From a plasmid, in sequence record CP128686.1: a stretch of DNA of 64,000 nucleotides; one strand, given 5' to 3'. Positions 31,601 to 37,600 of the stretch are shown here, in pieces. Position numbers: made by a program. Each line of letters opens with the position of its first letter. Position 1 is the first letter of the stretch.

Positions 31601-34600
31601 TGAACATGCCAGCCAGGCCATGAGCCATGACGATTTAACTCAGCAACTGGGCGAGCAGGCTCCCGATCGTGTGACCCTTTACCGAATACTGGAGCGGCTA
31701 ATGCAGGTAAGTATTGTCCAGCGTTATACCGACTCGGCAAGAACTCAGCGTTTCGCTCTGACCCAACGGGCTGCCGTAGGACTTTTTGAATGCGATAACT
31801 GCCATCATGTTATTCCTATTGAGCAGGATCCAGCCCTGGAAGCGGCCATTGAACTGGTAAAATCACATCTCACCGGACATGGTATGACCGAACGGAAAAT
31901 TACCCTTTCCAGTCATGGTATCTGTCCGGACTGTAATCGTACTGTCACCAAATAATTTTTTCTTATTCCGGACGACTGTTAATTAGCACCAGGCGTGTTC
32001 GTGTGCTGCTATCTAAAATAATGAGGTAAACGTAATGATTAAACTAACAAACACGCTTGGTATGCAAAAGGAGCTATTAGTTCCGGTTGAAGAGAGCAAA
32101 TCGGCATGTATGTATGCGGCGTGACGGTTTATGACCTTTGCCATCTGGGGCACGCCAGAACCTTTGTCGCTTTTGATATGATTGTCCGCTATCTGCGTTT
32201 TCGCGGATACGATGTGACTTTCGTGCGTAACATTACTGATATAGATGATAAAATTATTCAGCGCGCCCGTGATACGGGAGAGGACTGGCGCAGCCTGACA
32301 GAACGGATGGTGCATGAAATGCACATTGATTTTGCAAAGTTAGGCATCCTGCCACCAGACATCGAACCTCGTCCCACAGAGCACATCCCACAAATCATCA
32401 GTATGATCGAACGACTTCTGCATCGACAATTTGCTTACATTGCAGAGAATGGTGACGTCATGTTCTCCACTGCATCGGCAAAAGACTATGGAAAGCTTTC
32501 GGGACAGGATATTACCATGCTTCGTGCCGGGACCCGCATCGAAGTGAATGAATATAAACGCGACCCGCTGGATTTTGTTCTCTGGAAGCGGGCAAAGCCC
32601 GGCGAGCCCGTCTGGCCATCCCCCTGGGGCGAAGGGAGACCTGGCTGGCATATTGAATGTTCCGCCATGAACTGCCATTACCTTGGTACCCATTTCGACA
32701 TTCATGGCGGTGGTTCGGACCTGATATTTCCCCATCATGAAAATGAGATTGCCCAGTCCACCTCCGCAAATGATGGCCCCTACGTAAATTACTGGCTTCA
32801 CACCGGCATGGTGACGGTGAATAAAGAGAAGATGTCGAAATCGCTGAATAACTTTTTTACCCTGCGCGATATTCTGCACCGGTTCGATGCCCAGAGTGTG
32901 CGCTTCTTCCTGCTAGGCGCACATTATCGCAAGCCGCTGAATTATAGCGAGGAAAATATTCACATTGCGCGCGCCTCGCTGACACGGCTCTACACCGCAT
33001 GCCAGTTCGCTGACGGGTCTCGATCTGAACAGCACGATGCATGGCGGGCCAGATTCTGTGAGGCAATGGATGATGATTTCAATACACCCTAGGCGCTTGC
33101 CATTTTATTTGAACTGACAAGAGAGATTAACAGGCTTTGCGGAATGAATGATGATGAAGCCGCAGCACTTGCCACCACGCTGAAATACCTGGGGAATGTG
33201 CTGGGTTTGCTTGAACAATCAGCAGATGCCTTTTTGAAAAACCGCAGTGATCTTCATCCTGCAGAACTGCAACTTATTGAAAGGTTAATTCACCAGCGCA
33301 GTAAGGCACGACGTATGGGCGAATGGGACAAGGCCGATCGTTTAAGGAATGAATTAGCGGAGCAAGGCATTGAACTTGAAGATGTCGGCGAAAATACCTC
33401 ATGGCGTTTCCGATAAGTTGTCCCTCTGGATGTAAGAAATTTCAACATCGATCGTTATGTTATAACGTAATGCAAAGGGTAATTTTATGAACCAACCACG
33501 CGAAGTCGTTATTGTCGGTGCGGGTCCGGCCGGGGTGGGTATGGCGGCGCTTCTTCGTCGGAGTGCTATACAGGATATCCTGGTCGTTGACAGTCACGAA
33601 GTAGGTGCCTCCTTTATGCGCTGGCCGGAAGAAACCCGTTTTATTACTCCTTCCTTTTTTTCCAATCCGTTTGGACAACCAGATCTGAATGCTATGACCC
33701 CTGACAGTTCATTGGCGCTTTTCTGCGGTGAAGAACATCCAGGGGGGAAAACTTATGCCAGTTACCTTAAGGTCGTACTGGATGAGTATCAGATACCCGT
33801 CATGGCTCCCGCCAGGATTGCAAAGGTTGCTTTGCTCAGTTCAGGTAATTTTATACTGACAACAGAAGCAGGAGAGAAGTTGGAAACACGCTCTTTAATA
33901 TGGGCTACAGGCGAATTCCAGTTCCCGGACCGGCTGATTTTTCCTGGGGCAGATATTTGTTGCCATTACGGTGATGTGACCAGTTGGAAGGATTTCAGGA
34001 AAGGTGAATACATTGTTATAGGCGGCTATGAAAGCGCAGTGGATGCCGCTGTAAACCTGCTGGAAAATGGCTCATCGGTAAAAATGTTAACCCGCTCAGC
34101 CCCTTGGTCAGCTAACCACATCAGCGATCCCAGTCTGTCGCTTTCCCCTTATACCCGTGAGCGTTTGAACAGGGTAATGAATCACCGTCTTTTCGAAATT
34201 TATGAAGATGCGGATGTCTGTGAAGTAATCAGAATGCCCGGACCGGGAAGTTCGTACAAAGTCCATACCACAAACGGACGCGCCTGGGCCACTGACGAGG
34301 TGCCTGTGCTTGCTACCGGCTTCCAGTGTGGCGGGGGAGCAAGGCAACTGGCTGCTTTTTTCGAATGGAATGATGATGGCTATCCGGTATTAACGGATGA
34401 AGACTGTTCAACCTTGTTTCCCGGTTTGTATCTTGTCGGCCCTCATGTGCGGCATGCCGGTAATATTTATTGCTTTATCTATAAGTTCCGCCAACGCTTT
34501 CCTGTCGTGGCAGAAAGTATCACCCGTCATCTGGGCCTGTCATCTGAAGGATTGCGTGACTGGTGGATTCTGCCTTCAGAACCCGACTGCTGTGCCGACG

Positions 34601-37600
34601 ATGACTGCGCATGCTGAGGTGGTGTTTATGCAATCATTCGTTTTAACAGGGTTAGAAAGTGCTGGAAAATCAACTCTTTTTAATTTCCTGACGGAAAGTG
34701 CAGCCAGTGATGAACGTAATTTCAGGGGATCCACCGTTGTATGTCGGGAGGGGGTCATTAAGGATGCGGATATCAACCTGGTTGATACCCCGGGTATACG
34801 CTTTCAGAGCGACAGTGAAACCACGAAACTCGCGCTCAATGCGCTAAACCAGCATGATGGTATTCTTCTGGTGTTGCGGGCCACAAACGCTCAGCAGGAG
34901 TGGCAAATGATCTGCAACCTCATACCATCACAGACAAAACGCCTCATTATCCTCCTGACCTTTGCTGATAAGGTTATAGAGGGGCTCGCGGAGGTGGCTG
35001 AATACCTGGGTGAAATATCAGGTGCGCCTGTCATGGCAGTTAATGCCAGAGAAGCGGATAGGAATGTTCGCCAGGATGCACTGCAGTTACTTCTGCACGG
35101 TAAACCAGCTCCTTCGGTGGACACTTTAACCAGTCAGCAAATACCGGTCATTAATCTGCTGACTGAAGTCCCTCAGCAAACGATATTTGAACATCGTCGG
35201 GGTGGTAGGCCTGCTGCGATAATATGTCTTTTCCTGCTTTTTGCCGTTCCGGTATGGTGTGCATGGCTGCTGTCAGATTTCATTCAGCCTGTCATTGACA
35301 GTGCGGTTATTCAGCCGCTTGAGAATATAACGACCAACTGGCCCGACTTTCTGAAGGCTCTATTTGTCGGCAATTACGGTCTTTTTAGTCTTGGACTTTA
35401 TTCGTTTGTATGGGCATTTCCTGTGGTGGTACTGATAGGGTTGTCTCTTTCGCTGACAGACGACAGCGGGCTTAAGGAAAGAATCACCGCGACGCTGGAT
35501 CCTTGGTTACGAAAAGTGGGCCTCAGCGGACAGGACCTGATCCCGGTTTTAAGTGGTTTCGGCTGTAATGTCGTGGCGGTTTTTCAGAGCCGTTCGTGTT
35601 CGCGATGCACCCGGCATGCCTGTATAAGTATGATTAGCTTTGGGTCCGCTTGCAGCTATCAGACCGGGGCGACGCTTTCTCTTTTTAATGCCGCCCATCA
35701 ACCCTGGCTCTTTGTCCCCTATCTCAGTCTGCTGTTTATCACAGGCGCAATACATACGCGACTCTGGAACGGGTCGTTGAAGCCTAGCGAAGACCAGCGT
35801 CTGACAGAGCCCACCTGGCTGCAATGGCCACGCTGGCGAAATGTGACATGGATGCTGAAAAATATCCTCCGTCAGTTCATTACGCAAGCCATGCCGTTAT
35901 TCCTGATTATCTGCAGTGTTGCGGGGATGCTTGATTACGCAGGGATCACTCGCTGGGTGAGTGAAACGACGGCACCTTTACTTCATCTTTTTAAACTGCC
36001 GGCAGAACTGATGCCCGGGATCATTTTTTCACTGCTAAGGAAAGATGGTTTGATGGTGCTCAATCAGGATGGCGGCAGCTTAATACAGTCCCTCAGCACA
36101 TCTCAGTTACTGCTACTTGTCTGGCTCGCCTCTACGTTGATGGCCTGCCTTGTCACGGTATTTACCATCGCCCGGGAAATAAACTGGCGGTTTGCAGTAG
36201 CAGTGGCTGGGAAACAGGTATTAAGTTCTCTGGTGGTGGCTCTGGTGATATCCCAGTTATTTATTCATGAGGCATAAGTATGATCCCCAAGACTTACCAG
36301 CAATGGTACCGGTGTATCACAGAAGAATGTGGCATTCCCCTGACGCAGGCATTTATTGCATCCCGCCTGGCTGTTCTTCAGGACCCTGGACACCAGGAAA
36401 CCAGACGCTTTGTCTCGTTATATGGACAATCTCATCTGAACAGTATTGTACAGTGGTTCAAAAAAGCTGGGGAAGAATTGTTGTAAATCTGCCCCTTTTC
36501 GCTTTCATACGAAGGCACCCGGAAAATGCGGGTGCCTTCGATTCACTAATCGAACCACGGCTCAACAGGATCAGGGTAATGTCGCCATTTCAGAGGTCCT
36601 TCAGCCATTTCGGTATCCGTTAACAGGGCAGATTCCAGCCTGTTGCGCAGTTCGGATTCATTCATTTCCATTCCAATAAAAACCAGTTCCTGCCGGGCAT
36701 CGGCTTTGTTGAATAAATCGAACTTTTGCTGAGTTGAAGGATCAGATCACGCATCCTCCCGACAACTCAGACCATTCCGTGGCAAAGCAAAAGTTCAGAA
36801 TCACCAACTGGTCCACTTACAACAAAGCTCTCATCAACCGTGGCTCCCTCACTTTCTGGCTGGATGATGAGGCGATTCAGGCCTGGTATGAGTCGGCAAC
36901 GCCTTCATCACGAGGAAGGCCCCAGCGCTATTCTGATCTCGCCATCACCACCGTTCTGGTGATTAAACGCGTATTCCGGCTGACCCTGCGGGCTGCGCAG
37001 GGTTTTATTGATTCCATTTTTGCCCTGATGAACGTTCCGTTGCGCTGCCCGGATTACACCAGTGTCAGTAAGCGGGCAAAGTCGGTTAATGTCAGTTTCA
37101 AAACGTCCACCCGGGGTGAAATCGCACACCTGGTGATTGATTCCACCGGGCTGAAGGTCTTTGGTGAAGGCGAATGGAAAGTCAGAAAGCACGGCAAAGA
37201 GCGCCGTCGTATCTGGCGAAAGTTGCATCTTGCTGTTGACAGCAACACACATGAAGTTGTCTGTGCAGACCTGTCGCTGAATAACGTCACGGACTCAGAA
37301 GCCTTCCCGGGCCTTATCCGGCAGACTCACAGAAAAATCAGGGCAGCCGCGGCAGACGGGGCTTACGATACACGGCTTTGTCACGATGAAATGCGCCGCA
37401 AAAAAATCAGCGCGCTTATTCCTCCCCGAAAAGGAGCAGGTTACTGGCCCGGTGAGTACGCAGACCGCAACCGTGCCGTTGCTAATCAGCGGCTGAGCGG
37501 AAGCAATGCACGGTGGAAATGGACAACGGAATATAACCGTCGCTCGATAGCGGAAACGGCAATGTACAGAATGAAGCAGTTGTTGGGAGATTCACTGACG

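Follow-up and report, generated by a model that had tools for sequence, protein, structure and literature searches.

The operon described here lies on a 64,000-nucleotide stretch (the window) of a large Klebsiella pneumoniae plasmid of the IncFIB/IncHI1B type, sequence record CP128686.1. It pairs an NAD(P)H/FAD flavoprotein ending in a cysteine-rich tail with a FeoB-like GTPase-permease, and closes with a small protein, orf68 (Table 1). Comparison of its sequence with those of related loci indicates that the operon is almost certainly under Zur-type, not Fur-type, control. The cysteine-tailed flavoprotein is the constant element of such operons and the permease is interchangeable, being FeoB-like, Gate-only, ACR3-like or Amt-like. 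We favor the reading that this Zur-repressed module carries out zinc acquisition and hand-off, with a probability of roughly 0.4.

A major host defense is to withhold zinc by means of calprotectin, and the known bacterial answers to it are ZnuABC/AdcABC, ZupT, metallophores and COG0523 chaperones. An earlier note, made from the sequence of the window alone, had pointed to an operon behind a Zur-type palindrome that contains a flavoprotein with a CCADDDCAC tail, a shorter FeoB-like protein of about 549 amino acids (aa) with GKST and DTPG motifs and a polytopic membrane domain, and a 68-aa open reading frame (ORF), with no feoA. All of these elements were recovered, the small ORF as a real gene, and none of the three operon proteins matched FeoA or FeoC.

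Operator sequences upstream of the operon

The putative operator contains a perfect 6-3-6 inverted repeat, CGTTAT-GTT-ATAACG (33453-33467), approximately 20 nt before the ATG of the flavoprotein gene. Inside the palindrome lies the exact gamma-proteobacterial Zur core GTTAT-N3-ATAAC (33454-33466). A TATAAC hexamer resembling a -10 element, 21-26 nt before the ATG, overlaps the operator; this promoter was assigned by eye only, and a promoter and terminator scan found no canonical sigma-70 promoter and no T-run terminator for the operon. With one mismatch or fewer allowed, the core occurs seven times in the window versus 1.4 expected, a number reached in no shuffle. Six of the seven matches precede transcription units of the zinc island described below (~30168, 33454, 39290, 43433) and the match at 2641 does not. 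The earlier note called the palindrome strong, which is too much when it is scored against the 23-bp gamma-proteobacterial consensus GAAATGTTATANTATAACATTTC; all except one of its mismatches to that consensus fall in the flanks. That consensus has no match with three or fewer mismatches anywhere in the window. The operator was judged to be real because its core is exact and the same position is kept in orthologous loci.

Upstream regions of eight orthologous loci were aligned, and the box proved to be the sole conserved block, most orthologs reading ATGTTATGTTATAACGT. In 7/8 Enterobacterales and Stutzerimonas loci a gamma-type core is found no more than 120 nt from the operon start, the latter being the flavoprotein gene or, where a COG0523 gene heads the operon, that gene. 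The Bacillus-type box TCGTAATNATTACGA, with at most one mismatch, lies within 300 nt of the start in 18/27 Firmicutes loci. The density of boxes near operon starts is approximately 60-70 times that in the remainder of the loci. Zur boxes also precede the flavoprotein operons of Staphylococcus aureus, Halomonas, Bordetella and Shouchella. Neither the gamma-type nor the Bacillus-type box was found in the Verrucomicrobia and Chloroflexi loci, for which no phylum-specific Zur motif was derived, so regulation in these phyla is judged from COG0523 linkage only. The presence of two lineage-specific operator types before the same gene pair is strong evidence for Zur control. Control by iron through Fur was rejected, since the operon promoter has no Fur box (the best match has 8/19 mismatches).

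The flavoprotein family includes a member from S. aureus whose crystal structure is known (PDB 3D1C, a structural-genomics entry), which ends DDYSCCEVSCTC. Its operon encodes the flavoprotein, a Gate permease (446 aa) and a COG0523 protein, and the flanking alpha/beta-hydrolase and amidohydrolase genes identify it as NWMN_2483-2482-2481 (SA2370-2368; HG001_02621-24). A perfect AAATCGTAATTATTACGATTT is located 65 nt upstream. Calprotectin induces the three genes 152-, 83- and 43-fold, respectively, and the module is among the most strongly calprotectin-induced gene sets of S. aureus. A 2026 study placed a Zur box upstream of this operon and recovered it among the predicted Zur targets in a proteome comparison of wild type with Δzur. 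The S. aureus operon shares with that of the window an orthologous flavoprotein with its tail, the Gate domain, the permease cysteine cluster (GFGCN...QCHTCTKTQC...SSCSYQ), a Zur box and a linked COG0523 gene. It differs in that the permease is without a G domain, the COG0523 gene lies inside the operon and there is no orf68 homolog. Conserved boxes of two types, the lack of a Fur box and the induction of the S. aureus ortholog by calprotectin support the earlier suggestion that Zur, rather than Fur, controls the operon.

Zur context had been noticed previously for S. aureus and for plasmid pLVPK, whose corresponding cluster was marked as Zur-regulated by Haas et al. (2009). A term search of that paper returned neither 'FeoB' nor 'flavoprotein', and its single 'oxidoreductase' is generic background text. 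The earlier note's remark that such a couple is not described for zinc is therefore too broad with regard to regulation, which was flagged for pLVPK in 2009, and correct in that the Zur-regulated pLVPK cluster is uncharacterized. According to a 2026 preprint the Klebsiella Zur regulon had not previously been elucidated; that work was done with strain KPNIH1, and neither an oxidoreductase nor FeoB turned up in a term search of its text. In the literature searched, no study addressed the function of a FeoB-like/flavoprotein pair under Zur regulation, and none of the papers examined describes obligate pairing, conservation of the cysteine tail and cluster, partner swapping or the breadth of phyla. 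In Corynebacterium glutamicum a 'putative oxidoreductase' (cg0794/cg0795) divergent from a COG0523 gene is directly repressed by Zur, 45,500-fold by reverse transcription PCR in a zur mutant (PMC2823685). Cg0795 may be a homolog of the flavoprotein and is not counted as evidence.

It is very improbable that the palindrome is a chance match and the operon a decaying or irrelevant passenger, silent or non-functional on the plasmid. Erosion of the surrounding island, where cysS2 carries a frameshift and an in-frame TAG and zigA is split by IS903B, would fit such a passenger, as would the poor agreement of the operator with the full consensus. However, the three ORFs are intact. Their ratios of nonsynonymous to synonymous substitution rates (dN/dS) versus four orthologs are low (flavoprotein, 0.04-0.12; permease, 0.06-0.21; orf68, 0.15-0.20) and mark them as real genes under purifying selection. 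Furthermore, at least 486 plasmid records cover at least 80% of window positions 30000-40000, the 10-kb region around the operon used for this comparison, many with 100% identity. The exact operator core, conserved in position across genera, also argues against a chance match.

A cysteine-tailed flavoprotein with interchangeable permeases

The proposed pairing of a flavin adenine dinucleotide (FAD) protein with a shortened FeoB-like GTPase-permease extends well beyond the plasmid. In 69/80 species-level loci, drawn from many phyla, the flavoprotein gene lies within 600 nt of a FeoB-like gene, upstream in 53, downstream in 15 and on the opposite strand in 1. Where gene calls are available, start and stop codons overlap. 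A COG0523 gene is found within the 8-kb flanks of 54/80 loci.

The same tailed flavoprotein also occurs with other permeases. Translational coupling joins it to ACR3-like SBF proteins in Burkholderia pseudomallei (loci L083/L084), Halomonas (L085/L086), Methylophaga (L090), where a SufE-like gene heads the operon, and Bordetella (L091). Short Amt-like proteins are coupled to it in Enterococcus faecalis (L089) and Lentilactobacillus (L093), an Amt-like protein is encoded divergently from it in Streptococcus agalactiae, and the Staphylococcus partner is a Gate-only protein that lacks the G domain. The flavoprotein tail is present alongside both ACR3-like and Amt-like partners. The Zur-type contexts of these other partners include paralogs of L36 and L33, FolE2, ThrRS2, PyrC2, HisI2, AdcA and COG0523. 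Two translated SBF partners, those of Burkholderia and Halomonas, have the cysteine motif YFMSPCTDWFLGF in common.

The flavoprotein matches Pfam Pyr_redox_3 over its full length (314 bits, E=1.4e-93). Its tail belongs to a family motif, CC-x2-4-C-x-C, located at or close to the C terminus. Among 69 distinct homologs Cys368, Cys369, Cys374 and Cys376 are kept in 94-97% and Cys329, within the motif C-FIYKFRxRF, in 100%; GxGxxG and GGYESxxDAA are conserved as well. No conserved CxxC or CxxxxC was found in the core of these 69 proteins, where Cys329 is the only invariant cysteine, the others being those of the tail. The AlphaFold2 (AF2) model has a mean predicted local distance difference test score (pLDDT) of 84.6, and residues 362-369 and 372-376 fall below 50. 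The tail is thus predicted to be flexible or disordered.

PDB 3D1C is matched by sequence (E=6e-64) and is the first Foldseek match of the model (TM-score 0.83-0.87), followed by the bacillithiol disulfide reductase Bdr (TM-score 0.72-0.82) and then by type II flavin-containing monooxygenases, TrxR-type ferredoxin reductases and thioredoxin reductases. A monooxygenase was considered, in view of the title given to 3D1C in the PDB and a weak match to ArsO (44 bits), but this reading was not adopted because the nearest characterized folds are disulfide reductases and no substrate-pathway genes co-occur. Bdr/YpdA (PDB 7A7B, 7A76) is the best characterized structural match, an NADPH/FAD two-domain protein that likewise has no classical CxxC. 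Identity is only 20-21%, however, and the window protein lacks Cys14 of Bdr, has Cys329 and the Cys4 tail, and is coupled to a permease.

The likeness to Bdr raises the question of whether the module manages thiols and the labile zinc pool rather than importing metal. The flavoprotein would then reduce or oxidize a low-molecular-weight thiol or disulfide, or protein Cys4 sites, so that thiolate-bound zinc is mobilized or protected, compare ZigA-HutH and the histidine-zinc pool, and the permease would move a thiol, a disulfide or a thiol-metal complex. The redox motifs and invariant Cys329 are retained, and cysteine-related neighbors recur, CysRS2 being immediately upstream of the operon in the window and in Burkholderia and a SufE-like protein being encoded in Methylophaga. 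In addition, sulfide and nitroxyl stress induce the S. aureus genes. The authors of that work, however, ascribe the sulfide induction to zinc chelation, the position of Bdr Cys14 is occupied by the motif G-A-G-P-A-G, and the score against the YpdA family (TIGR04018) is 75.6 bits for a cut-off of 339.9. Permeases of the FeoB and ACR3 types are ion and metalloid carriers, not known thiol carriers. On balance we regard thiol management without metal import as unlikely.

The permease combines an N-terminal G domain, a short linker and a polytopic Gate-type membrane domain (approximately residues 190-549). Pfam scores are 51 bits for FeoB_N, 53 bits for MMR_HSR1 and, over two stretches, 63.8 bits for Gate. 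Comparison with hidden Markov models of FeoB, suggested in the earlier note, thus recovered the G domain and Gate motifs, but the whole protein scores 118.9 bits against TIGR00437 (cut-off 315.65) and 52.8 against PRK09554 (cut-off 683). In the AF2 model (pLDDT 76.6, predicted TM-score 0.72) the G domain ends near residue 157 and is followed by one 5-residue helix and then by the first transmembrane helix from residue 193; the helical five-helix S/GDI domain is absent from this model. Confidence is low in switch I and in the cysteine loop at residues 311-329. The best Foldseek matches were G domains of NFeoB (E=1.7e-6), and profile and Foldseek searches of solved structures matched G domains only, with no match to the membrane domain.

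The motifs GLESAGKST, DTPG and TFADK are invariant in the permease family. So are five cysteines (C313, C324, C327, C332 and C342) across 15 diverse homologs, and Arg322 and Arg329, beside the cysteine cluster, are also invariant. Close full-length homologs have approximately 545-560 aa and 45-55% identity. They are found in Enterobacterales, Stutzerimonas, Achromobacter, Paenibacillus, other Bacillales, Verrucomicrobia, Chloroflexi, Kiritimatiellae and others.

Like FeoB, the permease has an N-terminal small GTPase (G1 GxxxxGKS, G3 DxxG, G4-like TFxD) fused to a polytopic membrane domain, two Gate motifs, the GFGCN cysteine and a G-domain fold nearest that of NFeoB. Unlike FeoB, which has about 770 residues, it has 549, with no S/GDI domain and an extra invariant C-x2-C-x4-C, and its operon has a Zur instead of a Fur operator and an obligate flavoprotein partner. 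Because it falls below both cut-offs, has no S/GDI domain and is without FeoA, FeoC or Fur control, the permease is FeoB-like and not a true FeoB.

These differences bear on a second alternative, in which Fe(II), or Co(II)/Mn(II), enters through the permease during zinc starvation to load zinc-independent paralogs such as FolE2, gamma carbonic anhydrase, HisI2 and others, with the flavoprotein as a metal or chelate reductase or, through its Cys4 tail, a rubredoxin-like electron carrier. The permease has no characterized relatives other than Fe(II) transporters, and it keeps the Gate cysteine. The island is rich in paralogs thought to use non-zinc metals, the flavoprotein fold is also near that of TrxR-type ferredoxin-NADP reductases, and a Cys4 site could hold iron. 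Conversely, Zur boxes are conserved in place of a Fur box, the permease scores well short of both FeoB cut-offs, has no helical domain and comes without FeoA or FeoC, and the ACR3-like and Amt-like permeases with which the flavoprotein also pairs do not transport iron. Extracellular Fe(III) would be beyond the reach of a cytoplasmic reductase. Taken together, import of a substitute metal does not appear probable.

Table 1. Coordinates of the operon and its elements within the window
Feature	Position	Strand	Basis
Zur-type operator	33449..33471	.	inverted repeat, exact core, conservation in orthologous loci
NAD(P)H/FAD flavoprotein, 376 aa, two-dinucleotide-binding-domain fold	33487..34617	+	Pfam Pyr_redox_3, structure matches
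C-terminal tail CCADDDCAC, residues 368-376	34588..34614	+	alignment of homologs
FeoB-like GTPase-permease, 549 aa, ATG after GAGG	34628..36277	+	Pfam, NCBIfam, AF2
Permease G domain, ~residues 1-160	34628-35107	+	Pfam, AF2
Permease cysteine cluster, G-F-G-C313-N ... C324-x2-C327-x4-C332 ... C342	35564..35653	+	alignment
orf68, 68-aa conserved accessory protein, starting two bases past the permease stop codon	36280..36486	+	conservation, dN/dS
Perfect 12-bp stem with 7-nt loop, 24 nt past the orf68 stop codon	36510..36540	.	inverted repeat

A proposed route for zinc

Import of zinc by the module is plausible. In the scheme that we infer, which covers substrate, direction of transport, physical contact and redox role, low zinc would cause Zur, either the chromosomal protein or the island's own Zur-like protein (39390-39914), to leave the operator, and the three genes would be co-expressed. 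The FeoB-like protein would carry a thiophilic divalent cation, in all likelihood Zn(II), across the inner membrane as a permease gated by its GTPase. The Gate cysteine in GFGC313N and the arginine-rich C324-x2-C327-x4-C332 loop would bind the ion on the cytoplasmic side. A cytoplasmic flavoprotein docked at this loop could then take the ion by ligand exchange through its Cys4 tail and pass it to the COG0523 metallochaperones encoded alongside. The Bdr-related FAD/NAD(P)H core, acting through Cys329, would keep the tail thiols, and possibly those of the permease, reduced at the expense of NADPH. Alternatively, the redox core may cycle the thiols to release the metal.

Several points weigh against zinc acquisition and hand-off. 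Zn(II) has no redox activity, so a flavoenzyme is not obviously needed. The S. aureus Adc/Cnt double mutant is severely zinc-starved, which argues against the module as a strong independent importer in that organism. The operator has 9 mismatches to the 23-bp consensus (9 of 22), when background sequence reaches 8, and by this measure it is the weakest of the four in the island, the others having 4-6. ACR3-like and Amt-like partners are without the permease cysteine cluster, so a cysteine-to-cysteine relay cannot be universal. The predicted cytoplasmic side of the cysteine loop follows from the positive-inside rule only, in a region where AF2 confidence is below 50. Given its homology to FeoB, the permease could also have Fe(II) as its substrate. 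Finally, Adc and Cnt are regarded as the zinc importers in work on S. aureus.

The logic of hand-off through a mobile tail has a parallel in mercury resistance. The C-terminal cysteine pair of MerA accepts Hg(II) from different membrane transporters. MerA, with MerT, MerC, MerF or MerE, likewise combines a cytoplasmic pyridine-nucleotide flavoprotein and mobile C-terminal cysteines with interchangeable transporters. In contrast to MerA, the window flavoprotein lacks the redox-active CxxxxC pair and the NmerA domain, Zn(II) is not reducible, and regulation is by starvation, not toxicity. Since the active-site pair is absent, the comparison with mer is kept as an analogy only. CzcO-CzcD offers a further likeness, drawn from annotation, in that a COG2072 flavoprotein of the same broad class stands beside a divalent-metal transporter, and one database source gives the name CzcO to one flavoprotein homolog. 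There the transporter is of a different family, a cation diffusion facilitator, and the direction is efflux; we know of no Cys4 tail in CzcO.

Conservation of the module extends across Proteobacteria, Firmicutes, Chloroflexi and Verrucomicrobia. Should it prove to take up metal or handle zinc with the help of a required flavoprotein, it would represent a new mechanism in metal homeostasis, explain a recurrent unknown in Zur regulons and be a candidate fitness factor for hypervirulent K. pneumoniae. A broader generalization is offered tentatively and is itself rather doubtful: the modules may form a hitherto unrecognized, very widespread class of zinc-starvation machinery, in which an NAD(P)H flavoprotein with a mobile Cys4 tail is the common cytoplasmic acceptor and driver for structurally unrelated permeases, and thiolate redox cycling captures and releases Zn(II). 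Such a class would amount to redox- or chaperone-coupled metal import that is neither ABC, ZIP, NRAMP nor P-type, with a copy on a hypervirulent Klebsiella virulence plasmid.

The zinc island, orf68 and the operon end

The operon lies inside a zinc island that has, ahead of the operon, a QueD-like gene, gamma carbonic anhydrase, FolE2 and DksA2, then a COG0523 GTPase, a divergent Fur-family gene and a CysRS paralog. Past the operon are ZigA (COG0523), HisI2, a second Fur-family gene and, further on, an ABC/MFS transporter operon. The island thus has two COG0523 genes and two Fur-family genes. The setting of FolE2, DksA2, COG0523, HisI2, CysRS2 and carbonic anhydrase is the same as in the pLVPK island and the COG0523 clusters of Haas et al. 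(2009).

The two Fur-family proteins, encoded at 31503-31955 and 39390-39914, are 24% identical to one another. The second has Zur as its top family match (84 bits, under the cut-off of 167), and its gene adjoins the Zur box common to hisI2-zigA; for the first, the matches to Fur, Zur and PerR are weak and equally so. Either of them, instead of chromosomal Zur, could regulate the island operators.

Two neighbors of the operon are damaged on this plasmid. The CysRS paralog gene cysS2 (32020-33416), directly upstream, is a pseudogene. Its reading frame shifts by -1 in an A-run near 32090, and a codon that is CAG (Gln) in the ortholog is an in-frame TAG at 33090-33092. It is intact in the chromosomal copy of K. 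pneumoniae ATCC 13883 (locus L003). Downstream, an IS5-family insertion sequence (IS903B-like; transposase ORF 36734-37702) disrupts the 3' end of zigA (region 36545-38831), so that a 5' part of 362 codons (37743-38831, minus strand) is separated from a C-terminal remnant (approximately 36546-36671). Other plasmids (loci L001 and L002) carry an intact 406-aa zigA without the insertion sequence at that place.

Divergence from the ATCC 13883 copy (L003 6859-9859) is mosaic. The flavoprotein is 99% identical with a synonymous divergence (dS) of 0.13, and the permease and orf68 are 89% and 91% identical, respectively, with dS of 0.27-0.32. This pattern suggests a recombination breakpoint near the flavoprotein/permease junction.

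The top Zur box of the window, TAAATGTTATGTTATCACATTAC, with 4 mismatches to the consensus, fronts another operon (region 43428-49713) that encodes two ABC ATPases, an MFS protein, a family-5 solute-binding protein and a fused permease. Its gene order recalls the import and export genes of opine metallophores (Cnt-like).

orf68 has the motif W-x2-C-I-x3-C-G-I-x-L-T ... H-x-E-T-x2-F ... Y-G ... W-F and no match in Pfam or NCBIfam even at E<=10, and it is neither FeoA nor FeoC. In Enterobacterales and Stutzerimonas its gene comes immediately after that of the permease, and it occurs in four further loci (L060, L064, L072 and L073), three from Verrucomicrobia metagenome-assembled genomes and one labeled as a cyanobacterium. 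A scan of 1.84 billion representatives returned 261 clusters at E<=1e-3, and all of the looked-up members bearing a name are called 'hypothetical protein'. The domain is also found in tandem, in 13 copies in P0361 (1361 aa, ENA, from an 861-kb contig) and in 6 copies in P0416 (1094 aa), annotated as Nippostrongylus brasiliensis (nematode assembly). These tandem proteins may reflect contamination, horizontal transfer or a genuine eukaryotic repeat protein.

The stem-loop past orf68 stands between the operon and zigA, which are convergent. It has no T-run and was not called by the T-run terminator scan, but it is a possible bidirectional terminator.

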